DNA of 64,000 nt, taken from the IMG/VR virus record IMGVR_UViG_3300032103_000260, positions 23,224-87,223 of that record. One strand, written 5' to 3'. The translations under genes were made by a program, and so were the position numbers. The stretch is from a virus. Positions 13,851-38,837 of the stretch are shown here, piece by piece (positions within the stretch are counted from its first letter, which is position 1; each line of letters opens with the position of its first letter). The notes under the pieces were generated by a model. That model had not been told where the DNA came from and made no database searches. It saw only the letters and a program-made list of their open reading frames with translations.

Positions 13851-14170
13851 AAAATTTTTAATTTTCTTTGTTTTGTACATTTCTTTTTTCTTGTTTATCA
13901 TTGGAATTTTTTTTCCAATATGATATTAACCAAACAGCTATCATACCAAATACTGCTAAAAAGCCAATTGCAAATGCTAATCTTATCATGTTTTTAATTA
14001 AATTTATTTATCGCAAATATAAAAATATATATTATTCTCAATTTAATAATTTTACTCTTGTTCGGCAAATTATCTAATAATAGTTTTTATATCTTAATTT
14101 TTCCTCAAAAATTTTAAGAATTTTCATTATTAAATTATTGATTATCAATTAGTTTGAGTCTATTATAGAT

Positions 14171-14188
14171 ATATAACAGTTAGCAGTA
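14171..14188. repeat. Collapsed attC-like site (AAC-a-GTT) at the distal array end
   Basis: ATATAAC-A-GTTAGCAGTA; GTTAGCAGTA is the exact complement of TACTGCTAAC at 15033. Confidence 0.6.
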
Positions 14189-14191
14189 ATA

Positions 14192-14953
14192 CTACATCTC
14201 ATCTCCGAATGAAGTTACTACTGTAAATTCTTTTTCTTTTCTTTTTTCTTCCACCCTCTTTTTTGAATTTGTAAAATGTTCTAATTCTTTTTCAATACCA
14301 ATGAAATTTCTATCAGTATTTATACAAGCAATTCCAGTTGAACAACTACCCATAGTATTATCTAAAATAACATCATTTTCATCGGTATAGGTTTTAATTA
14401 GGTATTCCAATAAATCAAGAGGTTTTTCAGAACTATGTAATCTACTGTAATTATCCACACACTTAAATTCCAAAATATTAGTTGGGAATCTTGTTGTTTT
14501 ACCACCTTCATAATCTCTTGTATTTGTACCATGATATGCTTTACCATTACTACAACCCTTTGCACTATTAGTTGGTATATGTCCATCTGTTATTTGTGGA
14601 TAGTATTTACCTTTCTTAAAAATACATATTTCTTCAATCTTTCTAATAGGCATCCGTTTAGCATGAAAGAAATTAGTTCCTTGATTTTTTAACCAATACC
14701 AACAATATCTAAAATCCTTTAAATTGCTTGAAATTATCTTTGTAGTAAATGGTTGTGATGCAAATAAAGCAATCGTTCCATTTTTCTTAATTATTCGATT
14801 GTATTGTTCCCAAAGTTCAACCATATTAATATGTTCATCCCATTTTGGTGCAGTCATTCCATAAGGTAAATCACAACAAATAAAGTCAATACTTTTATCT
14901 GGTATCAATTTCATTTGTTCTATCGTATCTCCGCATCTTAAATCTATTATCAT
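14192..14953 (-). CDS. Orphan beta-class N4/N6 DNA methyltransferase (cassette 1)
   Basis: CCDLPYG (motif IV variant), HSSEKP, ILDNTMGSCSTG (motif I). Confidence 0.85.
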   Translation of the reverse strand: MIIDLRCGDTIEQMKLIPDKSIDFICCDLPYGMTAPKWDEHINMVELWEQYNRIIKKNGTIALFASQPFTTKIISSNLKDFRYCWYWLKNQGTNFFHAKRMPIRKIEEICIFKKGKYYPQITDGHIPTNSAKGCSNGKAYHGTNTRDYEGGKTTRFPTNILEFKCVDNYSRLHSSEKPLDLLEYLIKTYTDENDVILDNTMGSCSTGIACINTDRNFIGIEKELEHFTNSKKRVEEKRKEKEFTVVTSFGDEM

Positions 14954-15032
14954 AATTTTGTTTATCCTCGCTCAAAAAAGAAAAGAAAAAGGTTCAGTTC
15001 TCCGATTGAGCATTTGTGGTTAATTACCGCAC

Positions 15033-15133
15033 TACTGCTAACAGCGTATATACAAGATACGCCTACAAGCATTTGTTTATAATTTAAAGTTTCCGTTAAG
15101 GCGTACCTCGTATATACGCAAAACGTTATATGC
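15033..15133. repeat. attC-like hairpin E1
   Basis: TGCTAAC..GCGTATATAC / GTATATACGC..GTTATATGC. Confidence 0.75.
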
Positions 15134-15207
15134 AATGCTACGTTATTGCTTCGTATTAGGTTTCGTGATTATAATCTTTTTGTTTTATTTTTTTTTGCCC
15201 ACCCACA

Positions 15208-15788
15208 TTATAAAATTTGAAGAAATGATGCATCAGGTACAACAGCAGAAATTGAACCGCTATCTTCACCAATATTTTCATAATAATAACCACTTTTGGC
15301 ATTACCCATTTTTAAATTACGTAGCATCATTGAATTTGCCTTTTCATCGGTGTGTGGTTTATATGGCGAATTTGTCATCCTCCCAATTATTCTAACAGGA
15401 AAAACAATAGGTTTAGAATTAAATGGTATTGGTGTACCATCCGAATATTTAGCCCTTTCTTTTCTTTCTGTTGGATAATAATCTTCTTCTGGTATATCAC
15501 GCCCACAATTAAACCCAGTACAACCTAATTCGTTGTATTTGTTTTTTAGCGTATTTTTACCAGCAAGTAATGTTTTACCATATTCTCTTGTCCCATCCCA
15601 TTCACCTTCTGCTGGTACACCAATTCTTGCTTGTAACGCTTGTGTTGCAGCTAACTTAGTACCAATATGTATTCCTCTTTTACCTGCTAAATTTTTATCA
15701 GTTGAGCCGTGATAAAAACATTATCATTGTTATATGATTCATTCAAATATTCACGTATAGTAGTTGCTATAAATTTTCTTAATTCCAT
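15208..15788 (-). pseudogene. ADP-ribosyltransferase-fold protein, 1-nt frameshift (cassette 2)
   Basis: MELRKFIATTIREYLNE leader; adding one T in the run near 15714-15718 restores VFYHGST and a 193-aa ORF (581+1 nt). Confidence 0.6.
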
Positions 15789-15902
15789 ATTCTTAAATTG
15801 TTTATTCTATATATAAATATTCAAATTTTAAAAATCCACCCACAAAAAATAAAACAAAAAGGTTCGTCTATCGTATCAAAGATTGTAGGTTAAATCCGCA
15901 CT

Positions 15903-16037
15903 GCATATAACAAGGTGTATATGTAATGGTGGGTTTGTCTGTAATTTCAACATTAGTGGTTTTCTATGAAGTTCTGTGATTAATCGAAGTTTTGTTCTTT
16001 CTATCCACCAACACATATACACCCAACCGTCATACAC
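15903..16037. repeat. attC-like hairpin E2
   Basis: GCATATAAC-AA-GGTGTATATGT / ACATATACACC-CAACC-GTCATACAC. Confidence 0.75.
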
Positions 16038-16080
16038 AATACTACATTCGTGTTTCAAATTAGGTTCTGTGAGAAAAACT

Positions 16081-16503
16081 TTATAAAAATTTTGGATTAC
16101 TACCAATATATTTTCCATTATCATCTAAATCTTCAAATGGTGGTAATTCAATGTCAATATAACCAACAGAATCTTCTGAGCATCTAATAATAACATCACC
16201 ATTTTGTAAAAAAATTGAATATAGTTTTATGTTTTCTCCTATTCCATCAATTCCCTTAATAGTTAATAATTTTGGTTCAGTTTCTTGTTTAAAAGAAACA
16301 CCTTCATTTGTCATTTCCATAATAGGTTCTCCAACCATATTAATTTCTTCAATTATTTCAATTTTTTTACCTTTTAGTTCATCAATACTTTCAAAGTATG
16401 GTTCTAAAATTTTAAGTTCTTTTCCAAAAAGTCCTTTCATTCCAGAAATGTTAATATTTTCTGGTAGTGTTTCCAAGTAATCTTTAATTTTCATATTTAT
16501 CAA
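16081..16503 (-). CDS. Hypothetical protein (cassette 3; likely start 16494)
   Basis: 140-aa ORF between E2 and E3. Confidence 0.65.
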   Translation of the reverse strand: MINMKIKDYLETLPENINISGMKGLFGKELKILEPYFESIDELKGKKIEIIEEINMVGEPIMEMTNEGVSFKQETEPKLLTIKGIDGIGENIKLYSIFLQNGDVIIRCSEDSVGYIDIELPPFEDLDDNGKYIGSNPKFL

Positions 16504-16539
16504 TTTTCATATTTATCAATTTTCATATTTATCAATTTT
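16486..16539. repeat. 16-bp tandem repeat, 3.4 copies
   Basis: (AATTTTCATATTTATC)x3+AATTTT, spanning the start codon. Confidence 0.9.
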
Positions 16540-16599
16540 AATTTTTATAAAGTTTTTATTCGTTCTCTGTATCAACAATCTACCTTAATTAGCCGTACT

Positions 16600-16733
16600 G
16601 TGTATAACAAGGTGTATATGTAATGGTGGTTTCATCTGTAATTTGAACATTTGTGGTTTCTACAAAGTTCAGTGGATAATCAAACATTTCTGCTCTTTAT
16701 CCACCACTACATATACACCCAACCGTTAGTGGC
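16600..16733. repeat. attC-like hairpin E3
   Basis: GTGTATAAC-AA-GGTGTATATGTA / TACATATACACC-CAACC-GTTAGTGGC. Confidence 0.8.
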
Positions 16734-16923
16734 AAGTGCTACTGTCTGCAAAATCAGGACAATTCTCAATAATTATATGTTCATCATTATCTAATTCTGC
16801 AACAAAACAAGCTCCTGCATTTTTTATTTTTAAATTTTTATTTTTAACACATTCAAAATCTAATAATGGTTCTTTTGTGCATTTTAAATTGCTACAATAT
16901 GGGCATCCTTTTGATAAATTCAT
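16726..16923 (-). CDS. Small Cys-rich protein (cassette 4)
   Basis: CPYC..C; its stop TAA lies within the GCCACTAAC core, as in many integron cassettes. Confidence 0.6.
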   Translation of the reverse strand: MNLSKGCPYCSNLKCTKEPLLDFECVKNKNLKIKNAGACFVAELDNDEHIIIENCPDFADSSTCH

Positions 16924-16945
16924 TTTCGTTTATTTTACTGCACCA

Positions 16946-17039
16946 GCCACTAACAAAGGCTAAAAGCAATTGCCATTAAGCATAGTGCAAATTTTAAGCA
17001 GTATTTAAGGCAACTGCTCTTAGCCTCATCGTTATATGC
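16946..17039. repeat. attC-like hairpin E4
   Basis: GCCACTAAC..AGGCTAA..TTGCC / GGCAA..TTAGCCT..GTTATATGC. Confidence 0.75.
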
Positions 17040-17115
17040 AATGCTACGTTTGTGCTTCGTATTAAGTTTCATAATAATAATCTTTTTGTTTTATTTTTTC
17101 TTCTACCACACAAAA

Positions 17116-17412
17116 TTAAGAATAAATGTTGTCATTATCAACCGATTTAATTTGATTTGGCTTAAATGTAACATAAATTGTTGAAGCATCTTGGTAATCA
17201 ACATCATCAATCCAACTATCTTTAATGTTAATAAAAATAACACCATCATATTTACTTCTATCAACAGTTCCAACAATGCCCAGTGTTGATGTTGTTCCAT
17301 CTTCGGTTTCAATATCATCCCATTTTCTATCTTTCGCATCAATTATTAATGGGTTTTTTATTGAAATATAACATTCATATACATACTCACCACCTGCATT
17401 AACCATCTGCAT
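17116..17412 (-). CDS. C-terminal part of a polyvalent-protein-type ART domain (cassette 5, apparently 5'-truncated)
   Basis: YISIKNPL, YDGVIFINIKD, YVTFKPNQIKS; the N-terminal YHG strand is missing. Confidence 0.55.
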   Translation of the reverse strand: MQMVNAGGEYVYECYISIKNPLIIDAKDRKWDDIETEDGTTSTLGIVGTVDRSKYDGVIFINIKDSWIDDVDYQDASTIYVTFKPNQIKSVDNDNIYS

Positions 17413-17515
17413 TTTTATTTATATATAAATATTCAAATTTTAAAAATCCACCCACAAAAAATAAAACAAAAAGGTTTTGCTCTTCGTATTAAAGTTTGTC
17501 GGTTAAATCCGCACT

Positions 17516-17613
17516 GCATATAACAAGGTCTATAAGAAAGTTTGCTATCAACAGTAGTGGTAATTTTAAAGTTTATCTAAGCAAACCTTCTCATACACCC
17601 AACCGTTATAAGC
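17516..17613. repeat. attC-like hairpin E5
   Basis: GCATATAAC..GTTTGCT / AGCAAAC..CAACC-GTTATAAGC. Confidence 0.7.
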
Positions 17614-17667
17614 AAGTGTTCCGTTATCATTTCTTAATATCATTTTCGTTTATAATTCTTTTTCGGT

Positions 17668-19440
17668 CTATGCAAACATTGCCATTTGTCCATTGTTTAC
17701 AGGTGTCATTTCGTTAATAAAACTGTCCCACAAGTCAAGTGTCAAATTGAAATTATACTTCACATTTAGCGTTTCAAGTTCTGTTTGTAAGTCGCCTTTG
17801 TCAATTTGTTTTGCTAATTCTAAAAGGTCAATTCTCATTAAAATGTCTTTTGTAAAAGTCCTTTTAGCGTCTGGAAAAGTAACTGATTGTAAGAACTGAA
17901 CTGTCGTGTTAGAGTTTAAAAGAATTAATGCGTAAACGGCAAATTCTATTTTGTCAAAACCTATCAAATAACAAGTGTCGTCAAGCATTACAGGCTTGTT
18001 GTCCTGTGGCAGAATAAGTGTAAAATGAAATGTTTTGTAAAGTCCTGATATAGCAACTTTAAAGGGTTTGAAAGAATAGTCACCAATACCAAATATTGAA
18101 AACAAAGGTTTGTTATTGTAGATGCTTGACTTTCTTGCATCAAAATTTGCTTGATGTTCTGTCAAGTATTGATATGTCTTTGGATATTCAGTTTTAATAT
18201 ATTTTGTTTCTTGCCCAACTTTCTTTTGTGTAACAATGGTAAACTTTCGTGTCTGATTAATTACCGTGTTTTTAAGGTCAGAACTTTTAAGAATACCATA
18301 AACTAAACCGTCTTCCAATTTCACTTCTTCGTTTAGTCCGTTTACATAATGTCCGTTCACTTTGTCTAACTCCATTACAGTAGAACAATCGTGTTTTAAA
18401 CCTTGTCGCCAAACAAAAGGACATTCACCATCAATTTCTTTTGTATGAATATAAGTATCAATGTTTGAAACAAATTTGTCATTCAACCAACCGAATTTTA
18501 GTTGAGATTTTTGATTGTTGTAAAAATCAAAATCTAAGCAATCAAATGTCGGTTTTGAATTTAGTTTACAATAAAACAAAGCTGCTTCTACTGAAACATT
18601 AAACTCCTTTTTGCTGTCAATACAATGTTTTTCAATGGCTGAAATCTTGTAACGATTTTTATTTTGGTCAAAGACAATATTTTTGATAACAGAATTTTTT
18701 ACCAAAAGCAATAAATTCCCTTTCATATTTTGAAAGGTATCAATCATAGTTAGCGTTATAAATTCAGCAATATCAAAATTGCCCTTGCCTGTCATTGCGT
18801 CTAAACCGCTATGATTTTTGAAATTCGTTTTTTTCGGAAGGTTCGTTGAATTTAAACTACCCAATTTTGAATTGGTTACCCAAGGTGGATTACCAATTAC
18901 TAAAATATCATTTGTTGAATGTTTCTTGGCTATTGCTTTAAAATCGAAGTCAAAAACATTGCAATGAGTTATTGAAATTTCTGGCTTGTTTGAATTTGGA
19001 TTAGAAAGAAAGAAATCTACAATGCTGAATTTAGTTTCCCAAACGTAAGGTTTGTAAATTTCAACTCCGAATACATTTTTAATATTCTTGAAATTGCGTA
19101 GAGAGGCAATAATAAAATTTCCCTTGCCACAGGTTGGCTCAATAACAACTTCAGGTGAAATCTTTTTTGTCGTTAAGTATAAAGTTACTTTGTTTGCTAA
19201 ATCAGAATTTGTTTGGAAGTCGCCATATTCTGCTCTATCAGGTTCTTCGACAACATTATTAGTAATTGAAAAAACTTTTTTAAGAGTTTCCAATTCTTCA
19301 CCATTATCAAAAAAATGTATGATGCCGAAGGCATCATACATTTTTTGATTTGCCTTTTCAAAAGATGTAATCTTTTTCAGAGTGTCATTTAAGAAATCTG
19401 AAACTTGATAAGTAATATTTGCTTCAAATACTTTCATCAT
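17668..19440 (-). CDS. Gamma-class N6-adenine DNA methyltransferase (cassette 6)
   Basis: YGDFQT, IEPTCGKGNF (motif I), IGNPPW (motif IV). Confidence 0.85.
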   Translation of the reverse strand: MMKVFEANITYQVSDFLNDTLKKITSFEKANQKMYDAFGIIHFFDNGEELETLKKVFSITNNVVEEPDRAEYGDFQTNSDLANKVTLYLTTKKISPEVVIEPTCGKGNFIIASLRNFKNIKNVFGVEIYKPYVWETKFSIVDFFLSNPNSNKPEISITHCNVFDFDFKAIAKKHSTNDILVIGNPPWVTNSKLGSLNSTNLPKKTNFKNHSGLDAMTGKGNFDIAEFITLTMIDTFQNMKGNLLLLVKNSVIKNIVFDQNKNRYKISAIEKHCIDSKKEFNVSVEAALFYCKLNSKPTFDCLDFDFYNNQKSQLKFGWLNDKFVSNIDTYIHTKEIDGECPFVWRQGLKHDCSTVMELDKVNGHYVNGLNEEVKLEDGLVYGILKSSDLKNTVINQTRKFTIVTQKKVGQETKYIKTEYPKTYQYLTEHQANFDARKSSIYNNKPLFSIFGIGDYSFKPFKVAISGLYKTFHFTLILPQDNKPVMLDDTCYLIGFDKIEFAVYALILLNSNTTVQFLQSVTFPDAKRTFTKDILMRIDLLELAKQIDKGDLQTELETLNVKYNFNLTLDLWDSFINEMTPVNNGQMAMFA

Positions 19441-20114
19441 TGAGGTTTGTTATAGCTTACAATCTTGGTAATTCCTTTTACTTCGTCTGTAAGAGTTACA
19501 ATTCGTTGATATTGTAATCTCCATTGTAAAGCATTCGAAATAGTCAAGTAACCCTGTTCAGGTGGAGTTTTTAAAATTTGCTCCGCTAATTTTGATAATG
19601 TGATTTCGTCTGCTGGGATATTTTTGTCTTGCAGGTAAGCAATGATGTCGGCTTCATTGGCTTTATCCTTAACCATTTCTCTTAAACGGTAAGTTGTTGT
19701 ATAGTCAGCCGTTCTCTCTTTTGCAACGAATGAACAACTAACAAAATTCAAAGTTGCTGTCTTGCTTTTCGGGTCGTCAGCTTTGTCGTAAACGAAAACA
19801 AGTAAATTGTAGCCAAGTCCGAAAACCTTTTGTTTTGCGTCTTTGAATGGGCAAGATGATTGGGGCTGTTTTATTGAAGTTACTTTGATGTCGGTTAAAA
19901 TGTCGTCTGAAGGTAGGTCAACACCGCTTGCAGAGGAACCAATTGTAACTTCGTATTTGTCGTTTAAGTGTTTTTGAAATTTCTGTTCAATAAGTATCCC
20001 AACGGCTTTGCCGTCAGTTACTCCAAACAGTTCTTTATGCTGAAACTTAGATTGTTCAGCACAGAAAATTTGGGCTTCTTTTATTAAGATTTTTATCGTT
20101 AATTTTTTCTTCAT
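19437..20114 (-). CDS. Type II restriction endonuclease (PD-(D/E)XK-like)
   Basis: GVTDGKAVG..IE, GVDLP..TDIKVTSIKQPQSSCP; overlaps the MTase start. Confidence 0.7.
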   Translation of the reverse strand: MKKKLTIKILIKEAQIFCAEQSKFQHKELFGVTDGKAVGILIEQKFQKHLNDKYEVTIGSSASGVDLPSDDILTDIKVTSIKQPQSSCPFKDAKQKVFGLGYNLLVFVYDKADDPKSKTATLNFVSCSFVAKERTADYTTTYRLREMVKDKANEADIIAYLQDKNIPADEITLSKLAEQILKTPPEQGYLTISNALQWRLQYQRIVTLTDEVKGITKIVSYNKPQ

Positions 20115-20246
20115 TATTGTCTTAAAATGGATGTCGCTAAGTTAATATTTTAAAGGTCTAAATCAGTCTTGTTTGGTTGTCAAGTTTTACACAAAAGTTT
20201 AATGTCAAGCTACGATGTTCGTCTGTTGCACGGTCGTCATAGCATT

Positions 20247-20387
20247 GGGCATAACGTTGGTGTTTGCGGCTTTGCGTAGTGGCGGATTTAGAAGCACAAA
20301 CTTTCAATTTAGCACTACCGTTTTTTTGAAGCACTACCGTTCAATTTAGCACTGCCCCCGCCATTACGCAAAACCGCTGTTGGCTGC
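20247..20387. repeat. attC-like hairpin E6
   Basis: GGGCATAAC..TTTGCGTAGTGGCGG / CCGCCATTACGCAAA..GTTGGCTGC. Confidence 0.75.
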
Positions 20388-21235
20388 TGTGCTTCTTCTA
20401 ATTCTGCATAGTATTCGTCTGTCGGTTCTTCTACAACAAATAATGTCGGTGCGTCTGCAATTAGTTTTACTCGTTTTCTTGCAATTTCACAGTATTCGTG
20501 GCTTATGTCAATGCCGATATATTGTCTGCCCATTTCACAAGCTACTCTTGCTGTTGTCCCGCTACCACTCATTGGGTCAAAAACTAAGTCGCCTTGATTT
20601 GTCCACGATTTTATGTGGTCTCTTACAAGTTCACAGGGAAAAGGGGCTGGGTGTCCTTTTGCTTCTTGGTCTTCTTGTTTTTTGCCTACAACATATTCCC
20701 AAATGTTCCCTTTTATTTTTTTGTCCTTGACTGGCTTTGCAAGTTTTTCTCTTGTCTGCTCGTTTTTTGAAAAGTTTTTGTAAGTCGTTCCGTTTAGTTC
20801 AAGTCCAGCGTGTAAACAGTCAACCATAATAGGGTTGTGTGTTTTTACAACGCCTTTGCTGAAAACAAACATAAACTCAAACTCATTATTGTAGCGTTTG
20901 CGATAAATTTGAGGTATTGGGTTTGCCTTACGAAATATCATTGTGTCGTGAAGATTGAAACCAATTTGCTGAAAGTATAAGGCTTGTTTAAAACTTGTTC
21001 CCGTTTCGTTGCCGTTAATTGTTGCATCGTTAACAACCCAAACAACTATGCCACCTTCTTTTGTAACTCTGTAAAGTTCCTTTGCAATATCTTCAAAAGG
21101 GAAAACAAACCCTTTGTAATTTCTCAAATCGTCATAAGGCGGTGAAGTAACTGTAAGGTCAATTACATTGTCGTCAAACTGTCGCATTACTTCTACACAG
21201 TTGCCTTCGATTATTTTATTTATAAAATTCTCCAT
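20315..21235 (-). CDS. Beta-class N4/N6 DNA methyltransferase (cassette 7)
   Basis: TSPPY, HPAPFP, FDPMSGSGTT; the C-terminus reads into E6. Confidence 0.85.
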   Translation of the reverse strand: MENFINKIIEGNCVEVMRQFDDNVIDLTVTSPPYDDLRNYKGFVFPFEDIAKELYRVTKEGGIVVWVVNDATINGNETGTSFKQALYFQQIGFNLHDTMIFRKANPIPQIYRKRYNNEFEFMFVFSKGVVKTHNPIMVDCLHAGLELNGTTYKNFSKNEQTREKLAKPVKDKKIKGNIWEYVVGKKQEDQEAKGHPAPFPCELVRDHIKSWTNQGDLVFDPMSGSGTTARVACEMGRQYIGIDISHEYCEIARKRVKLIADAPTLFVVEEPTDEYYAELEEAQQPTAVLRNGGGSAKLNGSASKKR

Positions 21236-21241
21236 TGTCTT

Positions 21242-22156: not shown

Positions 22157-22268
22157 TTATCTCTGTCAAAATGTTAGTTTTCAAATTTACTTAAATTGTC
22201 GGTTAAGCAGTCCGAAAAAGGTCAAAAGTTGTCAACGGTTGCTGTCGGTTGTGCGGTCGGTCAGCATT

Positions 22269-22444
22269 GCAGCCAACGTTGGTGTTTGCGGTCGGGCGGG
22301 GTTTAGGAGGACTTAAAAATGGAGCGCAGCGGAATGTTAAGCCCGACCTGCTCCAAACTGTCCCCCGTGACCAAACTACATTGTGAAACATAAACTTTAA
22401 TTTAACACCAAGCCCCCACATTGCATAAACATTTTGTTGGTAGC
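22269..22444. repeat. attC-like hairpin E7
   Basis: GCAGCCAAC-GTTGGTGTTTGCGG (shared with E6)...GTTGGTAGC. Confidence 0.65.
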
Positions 22445-22646
22445 TGTAGGGCCCTTGTTCACACTTTATTTGAAGCCTTGTCTTTCGTTACCCGTTAATT
22501 TTACACCAATCTTTTCGTCTGTCGTGCGGTGGGGCATTTTTCACTGACCACTTTGTCCACTTACACGAAACCGAGCACACTTATTGACTGGCTTTGGATG
22601 TGGGCTGCATGTGTGGCCAGGCAATGTGTGTGCGACTTTGGAACTT

Positions 22647-23327: not shown

Positions 23328-24811
23328 TTCTTCGCTTCTTCCAAATATTCTAATTGGGTTTTTGCTCTCACGATAGCAGGGTCATCATCCCCTAAAAGTT
23401 CGGATAGTTTTTGAAACTCTGCTTTTGCATCATCTAATTTTTCATCTTCAATATGATTGAACAAAATACTTAGTGCCTTTGCAACTTTCTTATTTCTTCT
23501 CTCAACTCCCATCATTTCATACAAAATTGTGCTGATGTCTTTCCCGTAATATTTTGGAGTAATTTTTACAATCTCTCCATCTTCCATAATCTGAACTTCT
23601 GATTTTTCAGGATTGGCATTGCTCAACAACTGGGGTGAATGAGTTGTGATTAAAAACTGGCTCATATTTGTTGTGCTTGCTTCAACAAACTGAATCAAGT
23701 TTTCAATAAAATTCCTTTGCCATGATGGATGCAGGTATGTATCAGGTTCGTCAAACAAAAACAAAGTATTCTCACTGGTCACAAGTTCTGTTAATCCTTT
23801 AATGGTGATTGCCTGTTGCTCTCCCTCACTCAGTATTCCAAATGAATTTGTATTTCCTTCTTCCTCTTTAACGAATGAATACTTTGTATCTTCCCAAAGC
23901 CCTTCAATGTAAAGCGCGTTTAGCATTTTGAATAATTCTTTTTCCTCTATAAAATGCTCCCTGATTTCAAAAAGTTTTTCTTGCCCGATAATCGTAATAA
24001 TTAAATACTCATCCTGAAATGCTTCAATTACAACATTGCCAATTCTTCCTTTTGGCGGTGACTTTTCATTAATTATCAATGGACTTCCAATAGTATCAAG
24101 AAAATCCAAAAATGATTTCACTTCACCTTTTGCTCCCCACCAATTTTGTGCTTTGCCTCTTGCCCAACTTGGTTTTTTCAATCTGAAAGTGATGCTTTGT
24201 AAACCATGAATTTTTGCTCTGTCAGCAAGAAAATTCGGAACATCTCCAAACTCATAGGACAGAAGCGAAATAAGAATGATGTCAAACAATGCAGGTTCAA
24301 AGTAGAAGAAAGGTCGGTGAACAATTTTGGTTCCTTCACGATAATTCTTAGCAAGAAGTAAGTCATGTGGTTCACAAATGGCTTTCATTATTTCGGCTTG
24401 TCCTGAATAATAAATGACAATGTTGCTCGGTAAAATTCTTTCAAACCGATTGAAGCGTTTTATAATTTCATCAACCTTTTCAATGGTGTCGTTACCTGAA
24501 TAGACTTTGTATGAAAGTTCTTCTCCCGCTTTTGATGCTGAAATTTCAACTCCGATGTAATCGGTTTTGAATTCACTTGTCGTTGTGGTTTCTTCAATGA
24601 TTTCTTCTAGCCGCAACTCGTAAGTTATCTTGAAACCAAACTTTGATTTCTCTTTCAGGATTGCATCGCTGAAAATTAATGCAATCGCTTCAAGTATGCT
24701 TGACTTACCTGAACCATTTATACCAATGAGAATTGAGATATCCTTTTTAAAGTTGATGCTAAAATCATTTAGCAGTTTGTAATTGTCGATATAAAGTGAG
24801 TTCAGTTTCAT
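23324..24811 (-). CDS. ABC/AAA ATPase, PtuA-like
   Basis: GINGSGKS, LSEGEQQ, FDEPDTYLHP, TTHSP. Confidence 0.85.
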   Translation of the reverse strand: MKLNSLYIDNYKLLNDFSINFKKDISILIGINGSGKSSILEAIALIFSDAILKEKSKFGFKITYELRLEEIIEETTTTSEFKTDYIGVEISASKAGEELSYKVYSGNDTIEKVDEIIKRFNRFERILPSNIVIYYSGQAEIMKAICEPHDLLLAKNYREGTKIVHRPFFYFEPALFDIILISLLSYEFGDVPNFLADRAKIHGLQSITFRLKKPSWARGKAQNWWGAKGEVKSFLDFLDTIGSPLIINEKSPPKGRIGNVVIEAFQDEYLIITIIGQEKLFEIREHFIEEKELFKMLNALYIEGLWEDTKYSFVKEEEGNTNSFGILSEGEQQAITIKGLTELVTSENTLFLFDEPDTYLHPSWQRNFIENLIQFVEASTTNMSQFLITTHSPQLLSNANPEKSEVQIMEDGEIVKITPKYYGKDISTILYEMMGVERRNKKVAKALSILFNHIEDEKLDDAKAEFQKLSELLGDDDPAIVRAKTQLEYLEEAKK

Positions 24812-26160
24812 TATTTGTTGTTGAAAATTGATTGTTCAAATTCCTGAAGTGCCATAGAAATGTTTTCCTCGGATTTTGCTTCAAGGGCTTTAATTTTTTT
24901 TCTGTTTGAATTGTATTGCTGAATTATTTCTCTCTGAATTTTCTTGGGAGGAATTTGAATTTTGTAATCTTGTATCATTCCTGCATTCAAGTTCGGCTGA
25001 TTGTTTCCACTTGCCAATTCTCTTAATCTTTCGTACTCATTTATTAAGTAAATCCACAAAAAGTCGGTTAGAATAATTTCTTCGTTAATGTTGAATAGAA
25101 CTGCACATGCCTGATTTGTTGCAGCATCAATTCCTAACTTTGCTGTTCTCCCTCTCGTAATGCCTTGCCCATACATTGCAATTATCAATGAACCTGCTGG
25201 ATAGATTTTAGCACTACTATTTTCCAATCCCTGCTCAGTAATTTTAATCTCAGTGTCCATGATTAAGTCATTTATTACCTCTGTCGTTCTCACCCAAGGT
25301 ATATTCCCATCATAGTAATTTCTGTTTGACGTGTTTGGAGTTCCTCCACTACTTACTTTACATAGCTGTGATATTTTTAGCTCAGGATATTTGGGGGATA
25401 ATTCCCAGTTTGAAAAACTGTTTGCAAAATCTAGACCCCACTTGTCAATATTTTTGTAGCGAATGATATTGAACTTCTCCTTTTTGAAATTGATATTCCT
25501 CTTTATTCCAAAAGATACATTCAGGTAGTCAGTAATTTCTGTTTCAAGCTTTTTTAATTCGTTTTGTTGTTGCTCTGCTAACTGGATTTGCTTGTGATAA
25601 TTGCTAACTAATATTTTCTGTTTTTTAAGTGGCGGCAATGGAATCGGCAAGGAAATAAATTCTTCACTTTTTAATCTTGGTTTTGATACACCTGTAATTT
25701 TTGATGACAGATGCTCTTTAACTTTTTTTGTTCTTAAAGCAAGATGCAGATATTCTCCATCTGCTTTGGCTGTATCAATTTTGAAAACAGGATATTCAGA
25801 ACTAACAGCAAATGGTTGGGAGTTGTTGAAATGTATGCAGCCATGTCTTGCGTTAATTTTTGAGAATATGAGTGTCTGCGAAGGGACTAAAAATAATTTT
25901 CCCTTGTAGGAATTTATTTCCTCAAAATCTCGCAAAAACAGCTCACCTGAAAAATTTATCTTGGAGATAATTTGCAGATGGTCTTTCTTGATTTGCTCAT
26001 GAGAAATTGGAATTTTAATTTCCTCTAAGACCTCATTCAATGCCAAATAACCTTCTTCAACTTTGAGTGTATTTCGTGTAAATGCTTTTACATCCCAAAG
26101 AAGCAAATCTTTGAAGGGTATTAGCCGGATGTGCTTATATGTTGGATCTGTTTCAATCAT
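24811..26160 (-). CDS. hsdS: RM specificity subunit
   Basis: SSGGTP, GQGITRG, NQA, NLNA, IPLPPL..Q..I repeats. Confidence 0.85.
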   Translation of the reverse strand: MIETDPTYKHIRLIPFKDLLLWDVKAFTRNTLKVEEGYLALNEVLEEIKIPISHEQIKKDHLQIISKINFSGELFLRDFEEINSYKGKLFLVPSQTLIFSKINARHGCIHFNNSQPFAVSSEYPVFKIDTAKADGEYLHLALRTKKVKEHLSSKITGVSKPRLKSEEFISLPIPLPPLKKQKILVSNYHKQIQLAEQQQNELKKLETEITDYLNVSFGIKRNINFKKEKFNIIRYKNIDKWGLDFANSFSNWELSPKYPELKISQLCKVSSGGTPNTSNRNYYDGNIPWVRTTEVINDLIMDTEIKITEQGLENSSAKIYPAGSLIIAMYGQGITRGRTAKLGIDAATNQACAVLFNINEEIILTDFLWIYLINEYERLRELASGNNQPNLNAGMIQDYKIQIPPKKIQREIIQQYNSNRKKIKALEAKSEENISMALQEFEQSIFNNK

Positions 26161-28574
26161 TTTCCATAAATCGATTCAGGTTCGCCAACTACATTGTTTA
26201 CCATCCACGCTCTCGTTATTTTGTCATTTTCGGTTGCTGAATAAATTGCTTTTGATTGCAATGGATTCCATAACTTATTCTTTTTCGCATACTTCCTGAA
26301 CTCAACAGCAACTCCCTCCAATTCATTCTCACATTTTGCTCCAGTTGTAGTAATTCCTGCTTTCTCAACTTCAATCATCGGGATTGGGTAATCAAATCTT
26401 TCTTTTACGAGAGCTTTTACTTCCTCGGTTTTTTGTTGTTCAAGTTTTTTCATTTCACTTGTAAAAGTTGCTTTAGCAACTTTAAACTCTGCTTTCAATT
26501 TACTTTCTGTTGCAACCAACTTTTCGTATTCCACTTTATTCAGTTTTACATTTCCTTTCTTTTTTCCTTTTAAAACATTAATTTCTTTCAGTGTCTTAGC
26601 GGAATCTTTATATTTCTTGTCCGCTTTTTCTAAAGTTGCATTTAATTCATCTTCCTGTGGTTTGTATTTCTTATTTACTTCTTCAATTGCTTTTTCTGTA
26701 ATGTCAGCGTATTGCAATGCTTCTTTCTCTGTGAACTTTTTGAGGAAAAGCAAACTTGGTTTTACTGTTGCTCCGCTTGCAATAAAAACATCTTGCGGAA
26801 TAGAAGTGATGTTTATGATTTTTGCCTTGCCTTCAACAAACTCTCTTACCCTTTGTAAGCTGCTTGTATTTAATACTCCTTCTGGTAAAACAATTGCCAT
26901 TCTTCCTCCTGGTTTTAATAAGCGAATACATCTTTCAATAAACAATACTTCTGTCAGCCCACTCATTTTACCAAGTTCAAACAAGTCAAGGATTGGTCTT
27001 CCAGTTCCTTTCATTCCATTTGATTCATTTGCCCACTCAATTAGCGGCTGAATTACTTTGGCTTCGTATTCTTCTCCGTAGCGTTGTTTGTAAAGTGAGA
27101 TTTTGTTCTCGTTCGGAATATCCAAACTAGAAACCACCAATGTTTTTTCAACCCTTGAACCGAATGGAGGATTAGTAAAGATTACATCAAACCTGTCGTC
27201 AAAAATTCCATTCACATTCAGCAAGCCATCGTGATGATGCACTCCTCCGTGTCCGTCACCGTGCATAATCATATTCATCTTTGCTGTTCTTGCCATTCGT
27301 GGGTTTGCATCCGTTCCGAAAATGCAATCGTAACTCAATGTCTTTAATCTTCCCTTTTCATTTGTCAGGTCTAATTCGTAATTGAGTTGATTAAAAAGGT
27401 GGTCAACCTTTTTAATTATTTCTTCCTGCTTCTTTTCAGGAAAACTTTCAAAGTTGTCTGTGTAGTTTTCTTTTTTAATTTCTTCTTTTGCTTGCTGAAC
27501 ATCTTTCTCAATTTTCTCTCTCACGTATTCAAAGGCTTTGATTAAGAAGCCGCCACTACCACAACATGGGTCGCAAATTTTTTCACCTTCCTGTGGGTCC
27601 AATACATCTACCATGTAGTCAACAATGGTTCTTGGTGTAAAAAACTGTCCTAACTCACCTCGAAAAGTTCTGCCTAAGAATTCTTCAAATGCAATTCCTT
27701 TAATGTCATCTGATGTGTCGGAAAGATTATATTTCTGTAGCTCTTTGACTATTTCTAAGAAACTGTTCTCACGAATTTTGATAGTGTCGTTTGTCTCGAA
27801 GATTTCGTCATCTTTAAAAATCTTTTTTGTTTCGTCAAAGAAGTGCTGATAAAAAGGTTTTGAGTTCTTGCCAGCGATTTTTTGATAAGACACATTCAAG
27901 GTTTCAAACTCGTCTTTAGAAAACAGTGCCTTGGTTTTCGCTTGTTCTCTTTCGTAACGAATTTTCATAAAGAGAATTTTGCTAATTTCATCAAACGCTG
28001 CTTCTGGTGAAAGCTTGTCGTTGTTGCGAATTATGTTGTGGCATTTGAATAACAGTCTGGAAAAGTCGTCTCTTGTAAAAACTTTTGTTTGATTTAAGAG
28101 TTCTTGAATCTTCTTTTCATTATTCAGTTCGCTTGCTTTTGGAATGGAAATGATTTCATCCAATTCGTTTGGAAGTAAATCCTCATTCACTCTGAAGTAT
28201 TTTGTATTTTTCAGATTAGTCGTTACAAAGAATTTTGCTTTTGCCCATGAAGCATAGTTTGCTCCCTGATAATAGTCTTCTTCGCGGATTGAAATATGTT
28301 CTGCTTTACACTCAACAACGATTACAGGCTTTTTACTTTTTGATTTATCCTCTTTTGAGGCCCAAATAACAATGTCTGCTCTTGCTTTTCCCTGTCCTCT
28401 TTTGGAGTTGTTGACTTTCACTTCTTGTTCCATTTGTTCCAACGAATATTCATAGTCGTTTACCAAATGAACAATGAACTCCTGACGAACTTTTTCTTCT
28501 GGAGTTAGTACCAATTCTTTCCCTTTTAGCGGGGCAAAGATTTTATTGCCTGATATTTTGACCGTTAGTTTCAT
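26157..28574 (-). CDS. hsdM: HsdR-N-type nuclease fused to N6-adenine MTase (type I/IIB-like RM)
   Basis: TPEEKVRQ, ADIVIW..VECK; GQFFTP, DPCCGSGGF, TNPPF. Confidence 0.85.
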   Translation of the reverse strand: MKLTVKISGNKIFAPLKGKELVLTPEEKVRQEFIVHLVNDYEYSLEQMEQEVKVNNSKRGQGKARADIVIWASKEDKSKSKKPVIVVECKAEHISIREEDYYQGANYASWAKAKFFVTTNLKNTKYFRVNEDLLPNELDEIISIPKASELNNEKKIQELLNQTKVFTRDDFSRLLFKCHNIIRNNDKLSPEAAFDEISKILFMKIRYEREQAKTKALFSKDEFETLNVSYQKIAGKNSKPFYQHFFDETKKIFKDDEIFETNDTIKIRENSFLEIVKELQKYNLSDTSDDIKGIAFEEFLGRTFRGELGQFFTPRTIVDYMVDVLDPQEGEKICDPCCGSGGFLIKAFEYVREKIEKDVQQAKEEIKKENYTDNFESFPEKKQEEIIKKVDHLFNQLNYELDLTNEKGRLKTLSYDCIFGTDANPRMARTAKMNMIMHGDGHGGVHHHDGLLNVNGIFDDRFDVIFTNPPFGSRVEKTLVVSSLDIPNENKISLYKQRYGEEYEAKVIQPLIEWANESNGMKGTGRPILDLFELGKMSGLTEVLFIERCIRLLKPGGRMAIVLPEGVLNTSSLQRVREFVEGKAKIINITSIPQDVFIASGATVKPSLLFLKKFTEKEALQYADITEKAIEEVNKKYKPQEDELNATLEKADKKYKDSAKTLKEINVLKGKKKGNVKLNKVEYEKLVATESKLKAEFKVAKATFTSEMKKLEQQKTEEVKALVKERFDYPIPMIEVEKAGITTTGAKCENELEGVAVEFRKYAKKNKLWNPLQSKAIYSATENDKITRAWMVNNVVGEPESIYGK

Positions 28575-28777
28575 GCATTCTTTGTTGAGTTAATTAGTTC
28601 TCGAACATCTACACCTAAGAGTTTGGCTATTGCAATTAGGTTATCCATAGAGGGCTGAATTTCATTTGTACACCATCTGGAAATGGTCGTCTCGTTTTTC
28701 TTCAGCTTTTCAGCCAGCCATTTATTTGTTCTTCCCTGTTCGGCCAATACCGCTTTTAATCGATTAATTGGTTTCAA
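28571..28777 (-). CDS. XRE-family HTH regulator
   Basis: NRLKAVLAE..NKWLAEKL..TISRWC..QPS. Confidence 0.85.
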   Translation of the reverse strand: MKPINRLKAVLAEQGRTNKWLAEKLKKNETTISRWCTNEIQPSMDNLIAIAKLLGVDVRELINSTKNA

Positions 28778-29490
28778 TAGGAATTTTTAGGTGGTTCGTG
28801 GGCAATACGAAACATAAACTGTGCAAACAGTTCACGTTTTGCGTGTCCAGTATCTTCTCTATCCATTGCAAGCTCAACTTTCGTTTTGCTTACTCCTTTT
28901 TTACTGTCGCCTTTTGCTCCGCCAACTTGAGCCGTTGCAAATGGCGGATTGATGTAAACTATCCAAGTAATAGTTGGGTCGGCTAATTCATCTCTTAATT
29001 TTTTTGGAAGTTTCCAATTGGGTTCAAAAGGCAAATTTCCTTTGTTGAAAACGTATTCAACATCATCATTCAAGTAGTCGTATTGAAAACAAGTTGCGTT
29101 TGGAAAAACCTTTTTCAAATGGTCTGCTTCGCTTCCGTGAAGCGTGGACATATACAAATACTTGTATGCTTCGGCAGGTAAGTGATATTCAAGGTTGCCT
29201 GATTTATACCAATTTTTTCCAAGCACTTCGTTCCAATAGTGAACTGCTTTTTGTCCGAAACGCAAAGGCGTGTAAAATTCACCTTCAAATCTTCTTTGGC
29301 TTTCGTCTGTTAGTCGGTCAAGTTTTGCGTGAATGCCGTTTATTGTTTCGGCATTTTCTACATAGTCGTAAACACTCCAAAAATAATCGTAGTCCTTCAT
29401 AAGAACTTTTTGCGTTTTTGAGTTCTTGTCTTCAAATGTGAAAACTACTCGGCTGTTGTCTTTGTCAATGATTACTTTTTGTTACGCTGA
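28774..29490 (-). pseudogene. Truncated DNA methyltransferase-like gene
   Basis: GEFYTP and YINPPF present, but no glycine-rich motif I between them; coding-like sequence continues 5' of the ATG to the 29493 junction. Confidence 0.6.
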
Positions 29491-29492
29491 AT

Positions 29493-29501
29493 GTTGGCGG
29501 T
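29493..29501. repeat. Lone GTT core half-site E8
   Basis: GTTGGCGGT, exact complement of ACCGCCAAC at 30102; no hairpin to its left. Confidence 0.6.
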
Positions 29502-29513
29502 GCGGTTTATTTA

Positions 29514-30203
29514 TTAACCATTTCCCATTACATCATCAACAGCATATTCCATTGCATCTTGAATGGTGTTAAATTCCTTAGTAGAATCAAATTTAAATTG
29601 ATTTGGGTATGGTCTGTCAGGACAATCTATTTTTACAACATTAAAAACAATTTTATTTTTATCAATATTTTTCAATTCATTAATTTGTTTATCAATAAAA
29701 TCTAATTCGGCAATGATATTATTTTTTATTTTATTTAATGGTGTTGAAATAATTGGTTTAAGTTCTATTACCGAATTATCACCAAACGTGTCAGGCATAA
29801 CTAATTTTACACATAAATTATTATTCTCTGTGTTTTTGTAAATATGTGCTTCAAACCCAGTTGTTTCATGTGTCCTATATTTATGAACTATAACATCACC
29901 AATCTTTGTTCCACCGTCAGTATGTATTTCATTCTTTAAGTATTCTCCAAAGGATTCAATCAAATTATCAATATTGTCAAATTGTGGTCTGTTCAATTCG
30001 TTGATAATTTTTTTTAAAGTCTCTTTCGATTCACCTAATTTTTCACTTAGTTTCATAATTTCTCTAATTTTATTCGTTAATGTCTGTCTTTTTTTAAACT
30101 GACCGCCAACGAATGAAGATATACGCAGTTTTGAAGCGTAGGCTTTAAGCGTTTGGGAAATTGCGTATATCTTTTGTTGTATTTTGTTTATTAATTTTTT
30201 CAT
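29514..30203 (-). CDS. Hypothetical protein (cassette 9; start either 30203 through E9 or the internal MKLSEK)
   Basis: 229-aa ORF, phage-like AT content. Confidence 0.6.
   Translation of the reverse strand: MKKLINKIQQKIYAISQTLKAYASKLRISSFVGGQFKKRQTLTNKIREIMKLSEKLGESKETLKKIINELNRPQFDNIDNLIESFGEYLKNEIHTDGGTKIGDVIVHKYRTHETTGFEAHIYKNTENNNLCVKLVMPDTFGDNSVIELKPIISTPLNKIKNNIIAELDFIDKQINELKNIDKNKIVFNVVKIDCPDRPYPNQFKFDSTKEFNTIQDAMEYAVDDVMGNG
30102..30184. repeat. attC-like hairpin E9
   Basis: ACCGCCAAC..AAGATATACGCA / TGCGTATATCTT..GTTGTATTT. Confidence 0.75.
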
Positions 30204-30319
30204 AATTTTATTTTTTATTTATAAAAATAGTAATTTATTTCTAATTTATCAACCCTTCCCACAAAAAAAAGAAAAAGATTTTATTGTTATTAATTAAATT
30301 TTATCTAAATAACCCACCA

Positions 30320-30452
30320 GCTTATAACAAGGTGTATATGTAATGTGAGTTTCAGTGGTATGTCTATGTTCATTATTCTAATTAAGTTCTGTGGTTAAGT
30401 CAAGTTTAGTGTTTCAAATATCACACTACATATACACCCAATCCTTATAGAA
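30320..30452. repeat. attC-like hairpin E10 (E2/E3 family)
   Basis: GCTTATAAC-AA-GGTGTATATGTA / TACATATACACC..CTTATAGAA (GTT mutated to CTT). Confidence 0.75.
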
Positions 30453-30460
30453 TATTGCCA

Positions 30461-30700
30461 CTAAATAGGGCATCGATTACTATAACATTTTTTTCCATCA
30501 GTCGGAAGGTTGCAGACTTTACAAAAATTGTCCTGTGGCAACGATTCTATAACAGCACCTAAACGAAATTTTTTAACCTCGCTTAGTACTATATCTAAGG
30601 CTTCTGTCAATTTCTTAGGTTCGTGAATCATATCTTCTCTTTTGCCAAGTCTCCATTCTTGGTGGTATTCAAGTATTTCTATTGCTGTTTGTAATTCCAT
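30461..30700 (-). CDS. Small protein beginning inside hairpin E11
   Basis: 79 aa with a CKVC..C..C C-terminus; crosses the GTT core at 30553. Confidence 0.55.
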   Translation of the reverse strand: MELQTAIEILEYHQEWRLGKREDMIHEPKKLTEALDIVLSEVKKFRLGAVIESLPQDNFCKVCNLPTDGKKCYSNRCPI

Positions 30701-30754
30701 TTTCGTTTATTTAATCGGTTAAAAACTGTCGTTTAGCTGCGCACCGTTATATGT
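30545..30754. repeat. Long attC-like hairpin E11
   Basis: TTCTATAAC..CTAAACGA..TTTTAACC / GGTTAAAA..TCGTTTAG..GTTATATGT. Confidence 0.65.
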
Positions 30755-30830
30755 AATGCTACGTTATCGCTTCGTATTAAGTTTCGTGGTTATAATCTTT
30801 TTGTTTTATTTTTTATCCCACAGCACAAAT

Positions 30831-31361
30831 TTAAGAAATATATTGTGGTAAAACAAATTTTTTAACAAATTCTGGTTTATCCCCTTTATTCCAAAACCAC
30901 CAATTCCAGAACATTTTCCAATTATTTTGATTTTTTATTATATCAAAATCAACTATCGTTTTGATTGAAATTAATTCCTTTGGTATATTATCGTATGTAT
31001 ATACACCGCTTTCTTTCACAGAATAAGGGTCTTTATATAAATCCAAATTATTTGAATTAATTTCCAATATTATCCAATCTATTTTAATGTTTTTTGTTTT
31101 TGATAAGTTTTTACTTAATAATACTGCTCCATAAATGTCTGGTGTTAAATATATAGCATTGGGTTCATCATTAGTTGGTTTATTTGCAATTAAACCATTT
31201 GATAATATGATTTTTGCGTTCTCATATGATGTAGTGTGATAAACTTTATTGTAATTTACTTTCTTCTCATCATGTTCATATCCAGCCATTTTATATCGTA
31301 AATTATCTTGTTCATTCAAATATTCACGTATAGTAGTTGCTATAAATTTTCTTAGTTCCAT
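30831..31361 (-). CDS. ADP-ribosyltransferase-fold protein (cassette 12)
   Basis: VYHTTS..AKIILSNGL, AIYLT, IILEI, NIP.ELI; same 17-aa leader as 15208-15788. Confidence 0.65.
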   Translation of the reverse strand: MELRKFIATTIREYLNEQDNLRYKMAGYEHDEKKVNYNKVYHTTSYENAKIILSNGLIANKPTNDEPNAIYLTPDIYGAVLLSKNLSKTKNIKIDWIILEINSNNLDLYKDPYSVKESGVYTYDNIPKELISIKTIVDFDIIKNQNNWKMFWNWWFWNKGDKPEFVKKFVLPQYIS

Positions 31362-31438
31362 ATTCTTAAATAGTTTTACTTTTTATATATTAACAACAAA
31401 AAATAAAAAACACAATATTTATTCATTTTTTAATAAAA

Positions 31439-37849: not shown

Positions 37850-37933
37850 TGTACCCCAAGTAGGACTCAAACCTACACGTCTTTCGACACTTGCTTTTGA
37901 GACAAGCATGACTACCAGTTCCATCATTGGGGC
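37850..37933 (-). tRNA. tRNA-Leu(CAA)
   Basis: cttgt-CT CAA AA-gcaag, long variable arm. Confidence 0.85.
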
Positions 37934-38106: not shown

Positions 38107-38107
38107 T

Positions 38108-38338: not shown

Positions 38339-38371
38339 AGGATTATAATTTCCTATAAATACTCAGTCACT

Positions 38372-38724: not shown

Positions 38725-38745
38725 AGTTAATACTTACTTAATTTA

Positions 38746-38829: not shown

Positions 38830-38837
38830 ATATTTAA

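Follow-up and report, generated by a model that had tools for sequence, protein, structure and literature searches.

A probable integron-like cassette array in a phage of Bacteroidota, and related arrays beside a recombinase that lacks the IntI-specific domain

What kind of recombination could leave a row of phage genes whose ends match across each gene and not within the hairpins that separate them? This question is raised by a 64,000-nt stretch of viral DNA (the window; positions 23,224-87,223 of IMGVR_UViG_3300032103_000260, a 178,249-bp IMG/VR virus record estimated to be 60% complete, here G000). An earlier note on this DNA, made from its letters alone, had described an integron-like cassette array at window positions 14179-31400. 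Our analysis draws on the anatomy and covariation of the sites, the complementarity of unit ends, breakpoints at GTT, and the linkage of a recombinase gene to such arrays. It leads us to read this region, with a probability of about 0.8, as an array of cassettes belonging to an integron-like system of site-specific recombination, one with wide occurrence among Bacteroidota phages.

Unit ends are complementary across each cassette

The earlier note had listed eight pairs of unit ends, each made of a GTT end and an AAC end, and we found all eight where it had placed them. Six are perfect 9-10-mers, and the other two carry one mismatch each (GTC at 16029 and CTT at 30444). A ninth pair, GTTATAAGC at 17605 and GCTTATAAC at 30318, flanks an entire 12.7-kb GC-rich block. 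We then compared the six bases 3' of GTT with the six bases before the next AAC in 49 pooled sites, taken from the window and 14 loci of other viral contigs. All six bases were complementary in 17 of the 34 adjacent units, and at least five of six in 23. When R' and R'' were taken from different loci, the rate of perfect matches was 2.1%, and none of the 49 hairpins had such a match between its own two ends. These counts bear out the claim that the GTT end of a unit complements the AAC end of the same unit and not its own hairpin. Within the window, nine of nine units showed perfect 6/6 complementarity, as did 12 of 33 units in the 24-kb, 34-site array of G004, a 93,027-bp contig. The pattern is far beyond chance.

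When each of cassettes C1 to C5 (Table 1) was joined end to start and folded, the site gained 10-14 bp of outer stem and became 2.1-10.4 kcal/mol more stable than the in-array junction. Recurring sites retained their AAC-side end and leader while the neighbor on the GTT side changed, so that exchange occurs, as it does in integrons, at the GTT side; homologous leader-plus-site modules terminated at GTT. The proposal that the ends are the footprint of a G/TT crossover is therefore supported by both the cross-unit complementarity and the ending of homology at GTT; as GTT is common to all sites, this places the crossover at or beside G/TT and not at one exact bond.

The sites form a structurally conserved family

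The junctions fold as the earlier note had described, opening with AAC and closing with GTT: AAC is followed by a 1-2-nt spacer, a 17-21-bp stem, a loop, the returning stem, a 4-5-nt spacer (CAACC or AAAAC), and GTT. A covariance model, R1, was built from an alignment of 21 short-loop sites, in which 17 of 18 stem pairs showed compensatory changes. Covariation statistics were taken on 66 sites aligned to R1. Here, 94.8% of cells were paired, compared with 62.7% in shuffled controls and 25-40% with partners slid; all 18 stem pairs had changed on both sides, and the covariation score was 0.72 versus 0.145. Most of the aligned sites differ in sequence, and their flanks are near-invariant, with T-AAC-A on the left and C-GTT on the right (AAC in 66 and GTT in 65 of the 66 sites). 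Site length (64-145 nt, against about 57-141 nt in integrons), variable terminal loops, and a structure kept while sequence varies all agree with integron sites, as do the AAC/GTT core and a cassette start that completes its own site. A search of Rfam returned no family for the sites and matched tRNAs only.

Running a custom covariance model was one of the checks that had been proposed, and R1 found eight sites in the 178,249 bp of G000, all within window positions 15031-30455 (15.4 kb) and none in the other 160 kb. The same search returned 12-13 sites in several clusters of G001, a complete 287,855-bp phage, and 34 sites in the single array of G004, and a 19-mer from one stem had exact matches in 12 IMG/VR contigs. 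Two of the approximately 10 hairpins initially reported, at about 22269-22445 and 30545-30757, have a degenerate or atypical form and do not reach the model threshold. The earlier description also needed correction in that the sites at 20244-20390, 22261-22445, and 30099-30187 are oriented opposite to the others. A generic genome scan for AAC...GTT hairpins (32 matches versus 29-34 in shuffled sequence) became discriminating only after limits on stem GC content and spacers were imposed. A 10-mer stem match at window-equivalent position 95890 was rejected as a chance match within a coding region.

An A·C mismatch lies thirteen pairs into the stem (A in 65 and C in 63 of the 66 sites), about half of the sites have a second one, and a third is located in the extended outer stem (ACTG...AAC versus GTT...CAAT). 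Because A·C mismatches are G·T pairs on the other strand, the two strands fold differently. In integron attC sites, strand asymmetry comes from extrahelical bases, according to the statement for which PMC13148043 cites Nivina et al. 2016. We found no conserved bulged bases in the stem of the present sites, which have instead the A·C mismatch and an internal loop of 2 x 5 nt. The resemblance to the attC central spacer, suggested earlier from the asymmetry of AA versus CAACC, was not upheld: spacers of 1-2 versus 4-5 nt are present, but they are not the unpaired central spacer of about 5 x 5-6 nt found in attC.

Such hairpins could be mainly RNA elements, either terminators or processing sites, or selfish repeats resembling repetitive extragenic palindromes (REPs) or miniature inverted-repeat transposable elements (MITEs), with end complementarity as a by-product. 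A hairpin does follow each stop codon when the coding strand is read, and on that strand G·U pairs replace the A·C mismatches. In the Cytophagales arrays described below and in the window's own bacterial-type block, however, genes run the opposite way relative to the site, so an RNA role would not be conserved, and the confinement of the sites to 15.4 kb of G000 does not fit dispersal of the REP or MITE type. Neither the invariant AAC-A and C-GTT flanks nor the cross-unit pairing has an RNA explanation, and we consider this account extremely unlikely.

A short recombinase adjoins the arrays of related phages

The lack of a tyrosine recombinase in the window, already stated in the earlier note, extends to all 178 kb of G000, in which we found no PF00589 match and no tblastn remnant; nor was a gene or remnant found beside the attI-like array end at 14165-14181. 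The note had proposed an integrase encoded elsewhere, and the relatives support this. A tyrosine recombinase gene lies directly beside the array in G001, G003, L032 (NCBI GCA_902725775.1, 284 kb), L034 (236 kb), L035 (242 kb), L113, L114, and L115, and related phages have a conserved attI-like site between the two. All of these contigs except G001 and G003 were reached via homologues of the phage recombinase, and an array adjoins the gene in every contig fetched in this way. At a level of ≥74% identity, the family comprises at least 120 protein clusters, found on contigs as long as 288 kb, and 4,699 proteins match the phage recombinase with E ≤ 1e-30, many of them on contigs of 100-288 kb.

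The enzyme is 266-270 residues long, and its alignments show the catalytic R, K, H-x-x-R, H, and Y. Its best NCBIfam matches are XerA_Arch ("tyrosine recombinase/integron integrase", 177 bits) and TIGR02249 (152 bits); both are under cut-off, and the match to TIGR02249 (cut-off 265 bits) is split in two. Alignment to VchIntIA (PDB entry 2a3v) covered residues 16-181 and 260-316, with 30 residues between the two parts compared with 78 in IntI. Judged from these alignments, the phage recombinase is an IntI/Xer-clade enzyme without the IntI-specific domain that defines integron integrases, being about 50 residues shorter at that position. In none of the records examined did we see an IntI that carries the insertion. 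Thus, the search for an IntI-like tyrosine recombinase, another check proposed at the outset, returned an Xer/IntI-type enzyme in relatives and in a Cytophagales genome, but without the IntI insertion.

In G001, a gene of the sigma-70 family adjoins the recombinase (L014, 515-1390). Contigs L111 and L112, from different samples, both begin 92 nt before the recombinase gene, and assemblies appear to break at the array, as expected if array content varies within a sample. The array of G004 (L018/L019) occupies positions 67964-92249, about a quarter of the contig, has many units of only 160-330 bp, and ends within 0.8 kb of the contig end; a recombinase was not found in this 93,027-bp record.

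An attI-like site and turnover of whole cassettes

A conserved ACATATATAATATA followed by GTT lies 45-60 nt from the recombinase start in seven contigs, and the sequence past GTT is unrelated among them. Over 300 nt on each side of GTT, identity dropped from 98% (left) to 61% (right) between G001 and L113, from 92 to 57% between G001 and L114, and from 92 to 58% between L113 and L114. Across the tested comparisons, identity to the right of GTT was 52-61%, with about 55-60% being the level for unrelated AT-rich sequences in this test. BLAST alignments of the recombinase-side regions ended within a few bases of GTT, and L116 and L119 have 45 nt on the recombinase side in common and differ past GTT. 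The relatives therefore have what is expected of the attI site of an integron, whereas the window has only a similar sequence at 14165-14181.

Entire cassettes also differ in position. Cassette C2 (15125-16030) is 80% identical over 941 nt, from GTT to GTT, to the first cassette of G003; its left neighbor is the attI-like site in G003 and cassette C1 in the window. An absence of cassette-precise differences among relatives had been named beforehand as evidence against a shuffled array, and relatives do differ by whole cassettes cut at the sites. Relatives reached via a 329-aa flanking protein have only that gene in common and carry neither sites nor recombinase, so they allowed no comparison of synteny, and an exact 25-mer of the left flank matched no viral contig.

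These breakpoints bear on a further explanation, in which the hairpins are promoter-plus-stem-loop regulatory repeats and genes are shuffled by homologous recombination with no dedicated enzyme. The model for this is the T4-type promoter early stem-loop (PeSL) cassettes, small accessory genes of hyperplastic regions that are bracketed by promoter-plus-hairpin motifs and swapped as modules (PMC2839356, PMC4122927). In favor of this, a leader-plus-hairpin module of about 290 nt is common to cassettes with unrelated genes, one array contains three near-identical hairpins, and each gene has an apparent promoter of its own. PeSL exchange, however, is attributed to homologous recombination between repeats, without a recombinase, an attI-like site, or unit-end complementarity (PMC2839356, PMC4122927). 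Exchange within repeats yields neither complementary unit ends combined with non-complementary hairpin ends nor breakpoints fixed at GTT beside a non-repeat attI-like site. Near-identical bounding repeats with exchange inside them, the mark of PeSLs, were not found; most sites differ in sequence yet keep their structure, and breakpoints are fixed at GTT. We regard this explanation as very unlikely.

More serious is the view that the array is an ordinary cluster of attC sites lacking an integron integrase (CALIN), originating in a host integron and dependent on a canonical IntI of the host, with the Xer-like gene of the relatives being an unrelated phage integrase or a dimer-resolution enzyme. 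With eight R1 matches within 15.4 kb and no PF00589 match in 178 kb, the recombinase-less array of G000 would be classed as a CALIN, and its AAC...GTT cores, length range, and variable loop fit attC. In a screen of 10,705 phage genomes, Qi et al. 2023 (PMC9892861) found three integrons together with 17 clusters of 2-3 attC sites, several of these clusters holding methyltransferase genes; IntI1 recombined five of six tested phage attC sites with attI1. One of these came from Polaribacter phage P12002L (PMC9892861), in which we found five R1 matches between methyltransferase genes, with the same end complementarity, although the link between the two sites of that paper and our matches is by phage and not by mapped site. 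The site family has therefore already been seen in the literature and called attC. The phage CALINs resemble the present arrays in having attC-type sites between methyltransferase genes, but they have 2-3 sites per phage, no dedicated phage recombinase, and no attI-like site (PMC9892861), whereas the arrays described here have 8-34 sites and relatives with an insert-less recombinase. In all seven contigs compared, a conserved attI-like junction is only 45-60 nt away from that recombinase, and the same is seen in a bacterium. No record examined showed an IntI with the insertion, the integron-integrase model matches under its cut-off and split in two, and the sites have A·C mismatches and 2-versus-5-nt spacers and not extrahelical bases. 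On this evidence, we consider service by a canonical host IntI unlikely. Within the limited literature covered, we found no published description of an insert-less phage recombinase, an attI-like site, or large arrays in phages.

Proposed mechanism and points that weigh against it

We favor an integron-like system with a dedicated enzyme. Read on the plus strand, a cassette begins with TT and about six variable bases, carries its gene on the opposite strand with an apparent leader and promoter of its own, and ends with the complementary variable bases and AAC, the structured site (with a spacer ending in C), and then G. The Xer/IntI-clade tyrosine recombinase of 266-270 residues would cut at or beside G/TT, presumably on a folded single strand. 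Cassettes would be excised as circles, in which the two ends pair and the full site is rebuilt, and each circle would then insert again, either into the attI-like site, which in relatives marks the proximal end of the array, or into another site. With an attI-like end at 14179 and no recombinase gene within the available 60% of the genome, the array of G000 is either served in trans or frozen.

Relative to the orientation of the sites, phage arrays carry both their cassette genes and the recombinase gene on the other strand. When the coding strand is read, a hairpin therefore comes after the stop of the previous gene and before a conserved leader of about 170 nt that resembles a promoter region, and cassettes with unrelated genes have this leader-plus-site module in common.

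Several observations weigh against this reading. G000 itself has no recombinase, so activity in this phage is only inferred. Three inverted sites are not the product of ordinary site-by-site insertion, and junctions J7 and J11 fall outside the model. The cassette end at 29493 has no adjoining site, and a search of the window found no partner for the unpaired cores at 22436 and 20245. As the phage recombinase is without the insertion by which IntI binds extrahelical attC bases, the folded-strand mechanism is only an analogy. Finally, an added terminator role for the hairpins is possible, because a hairpin follows each stop on the coding strand, where A·C becomes G·U.

A bacterial counterpart and a GC-richer block with defense genes

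A 17-mer common to J6 and J7 had 71 genome matches, with about 69 expected by chance; only one, in a Cytophagales metagenome-assembled genome, was real under R1. The Cytophagales genome G005 (contig JAFLBQ010000012 and others) carries R1 sites with the same end complementarity and a recombinase that is 41% identical to the phage enzyme. This protein is also without the insertion (14 residues versus 57); its best match among solved structures is IntI4, and it scores 225 bits against TIGR02249, under the 265-bit cut-off. A 54-nt attI-like element occurs twice in G005 (L108, 4759-4812, and L110, 4495-4548), with a different first cassette after each copy. Genes in the Cytophagales arrays are co-oriented with the sites, opposite to the phage arrays. 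Recombinase homologues are located at two loci of G005, on its contigs C8 and C10.

The same orientation is found inside composite unit C6 of the window, where J6, J7, and J9 are all in minus orientation and the genes of the GC-rich block are thus co-oriented with their sites. The 3' half of J7 includes 27 nt identical to a site in G005. The best reading of this block, from its composition, sites, and orientation, is that a fragment of a bacterial array belonging to the same system sits inside a phage cassette, in inverted site orientation, and brings four defense systems. The claim of the earlier note that the array holds host-derived genes thus gains support from bacterial-type sites and orientation within the block and from a Cytophagales genome that carries the same system.

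The Septu pair directly adjoins the type I-like specificity subunit and an 805-aa methyltransferase with an HsdR N-terminal-like domain (22647-28574); no type I R subunit was seen beside this M/S pair. A 229-aa open reading frame (29514-30203, minus strand) begins in the phage leader and reads through J9, and an internal ATG near 30060 would give a shorter protein. Judged by the share of sampled words, a near-identical copy of the type II restriction-modification cassette (17668-20114) is apparently present in 19 runs from 11 other lake or freshwater studies. In some of these runs, about 0.8 kb beyond the cassette is apparently present too, and the phage-type cassettes to its left are not.

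Contents of the array and genomic setting

The features of the array are listed in Table 1. The phage-type cargo, a DNA methyltransferase and ADP-ribosyltransferase (ART)-fold genes, is likely to have counter-defense functions. The ART-fold genes comprise that of C5 and its relatives in C2 and in the last unit, and the remaining phage-type cassettes contain small open reading frames without assigned function. The start of the last unit (30750) is homologous to the starts of C2 and C5, and R1 detected no site in G000 to the right of 30455.

In the ART-like gene of C2 (15211-15846, minus strand), about 170 C-terminal codons are open and the conserved N terminus (MELRKFIATTIREYLNE...) is in another frame; the first cassette of G003 holds the intact homologue, of 221 aa. 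In C3, a 17-nt unit (ATTTATCAATTTTCAT-like) is present in three tandem copies (16490-16545) immediately upstream of the 140-aa open reading frame. The 79-aa open reading frame of C7 lies mostly within the loop of J11 and crosses the J11 AAC core, and the C7 unit is 89% identical in G001.

Table 1. Features of the array region, in window coordinates (ORF, open reading frame; R-M, restriction-modification; bits without a source are R1 scores)
Feature	Position	Strand	Details
attI-like array end	14165-14181	+	AGATATATAACA then GTT, no hairpin to the left; resembles the conserved ACATATATAATATA then GTT of seven related contigs
Cassette C1	14180-15125	+	N6/N4 DNA methyltransferase 14192-14953 (-) (Pfam N6_N4_Mtase, 8.8e-24), leader, R'' 15033-15042, site J1; ends GTTAGCAGTA / TACTGCTAAC
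Site J1	15031-15136	+	93.3 bits
Cassette C2	15126-16029	+	Frameshifted ART-like gene, site J2
Site J2	15900-16040	+	55.3 bits
Cassette C3	16030-16725	+	140-aa ORF 16081-16503 (-), site J3; ends GTCATACAC / GTGTATAAC
Site J3	16597-16736	+	68.8 bits
Cassette C4	16726-17031	+	65-aa ORF 16726-16923 (-), site J4; ends GTTAGTGGC / GCCACTAAC
Site J4	16943-17042	+	76.8 bits; reconstituted form 10.4 kcal/mol more stable than in-array form
Cassette C5	17032-17605	+	98-aa ART-fold gene 17116-17412 (-) (Pfam ART-PolyVal, 1.8e-9), site J5
Site J5	17513-17616	+	92.6 bits
Composite unit C6	17606-30444	+	Phage-type outer ends GTTATAAGC / GCTTATAAC (6/6), phage leader 30190-30326, site J10; encloses the GC-richer bacterial-type block
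Type II R-M pair	17668-20114	-	590-aa methyltransferase (PADLOC MTase_II, 441 bits), 225-aa endonuclease (REase_II, 280 bits)
Site J6	20244-20390	-	36.4 bits; bacterial configuration, genes co-oriented with site
HindIII-type R-M cassette	20315-22156	-	306-aa methyltransferase (N6_N4_Mtase, 3.2e-47), 304-aa endonuclease (Pfam RE_HindIII, 8.5e-117); bounded by 20379 GTTGGCTGC and 22269 GCAGCCAAC
Site J7	22261-22445	-	Degenerate or hybrid, under R1 threshold
Septu pair	22647-24811	-	PtuB, 226 aa (PADLOC, 220 bits); PtuA, 495 aa (259 bits)
Type I-like specificity subunit and methyltransferase, helix-turn-helix protein, 208-aa ORF	24811-29400	-	PADLOC Specificity_I, MTase_I (1142 bits); Pfam HTH_3
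Minus-oriented cassette	29493-30187	-	30102 ACCGCCAAC / 29493 GTTGGCGGT around ORF 29514-30203; site J9 on upstream side
Site J9	30099-30187	-	44.2 bits
Site J10	30317-30455	+	53.4 bits
Cassette C7	30445-30749	+	79-aa ORF 30461-30700 (-), long hairpin J11 (30545-30757; 24-nt arms, 88% complementary; no R1 match)
Last, incomplete unit	30750-31400	+	Starts GTTATATGT; ART-like 176-aa gene 30831-31361 (-); no distal AAC or site

The window is AT-rich, with about 28% GC outside the GC-rich block and 32-38% within it, and the minus strand holds every long open reading frame between 12.6 and 34 kb. Complete or near-complete relatives with the same site family are 284-288 kb in size, and the label "jumbo phage" used in the earlier note is plausible for G000, resting on these relatives and on a 178-kb record that is 60% complete. 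A freshwater Bacteroidota host is indicated by several observations: the type IX secretion system sorting domain Por_Secre_tail occurs in proteins of relatives, the nearest recombinases among isolated phages are those of Cellulophaga and Polaribacter phages, and the DNA is present in lake and freshwater metagenomes. No similarity at the DNA level to any isolated phage was found for G000. The window also contains 20 tRNA genes in two clusters (37851-40668 and 45868-46549); the one at 40596-40668 is called with a four-base anticodon, and two others have a long arm and unusual anticodon assignments.

Relation to known systems and implications

The system works like an integron but lacks two of its defining features, the IntI domain and the extrahelical bases. 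It resembles integrons in being a cassette array (promoter-poor or single-function) with imperfect hairpins and AAC...GTT cores, in which the cassette start completes its own site on circularization, and in having an insertion site beside a tyrosine recombinase of the same clade. Its defense cargo resembles that of sedentary chromosomal integrons, for which defense systems have been described as integron cargo (bioRxiv 10.1101/2024.07.02.601686). Besides the shorter recombinase and the different sites, the phage arrays differ from integrons in that the genes for the recombinase and the cassette cargo run against the site orientation and an apparent leader and promoter accompany each cassette.

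Two other systems are comparable in part. In Riemerella anatipestifer (Flavobacteriaceae), single mobile resistance genes with a folded 3' element insert without flanking homology, and the fold has been likened to attC (PMC13148043). These elements are bacterial, with no array or recombinase described (PMC13148043); we liken them to the present sites by description only.

The pdif modules of Acinetobacter plasmids likewise use an Xer-type recombinase (XerC/XerD) and have short sites that bracket swappable gene modules. Their sites, however, are 28-bp double-stranded sequences in alternating orientation, compared with the structured hairpins of 65-145 nt in one orientation described here.

Beyond the reading of the window itself, we hold it to be slightly more probable than an even chance that Bacteroidota phages, jumbo phages of about 285 kb among them, have an integron-like gene-capture platform of their own. 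Its parts would be an IntI/Xer-type recombinase without the insert, an attI-like site, and hairpins marked by A·C in place of extrahelical bases; the site family would be common to these phages and to chromosomal arrays of Bacteroidota, and phage and host would trade cassettes directly. If this is true, phages would stock counter-defense genes in this way and occasionally lift whole host defense cassettes, and the IntI-specific domain would be dispensable for integron-type recombination, which bears on the origin of integrons. In the usual view, integrons belong to bacteria and are defined by the special domain of their integrase; here, their logic would operate in phages and in Bacteroidota chromosomes with a shorter enzyme and a different site design. 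The system would thus offer a concrete mechanism for the fast turnover of accessory, including counter-defense, genes in large phages, a direct route by which host and phage could pass defense systems to each other, and a natural experiment for telling the essential features of the integron machinery from the dispensable ones.

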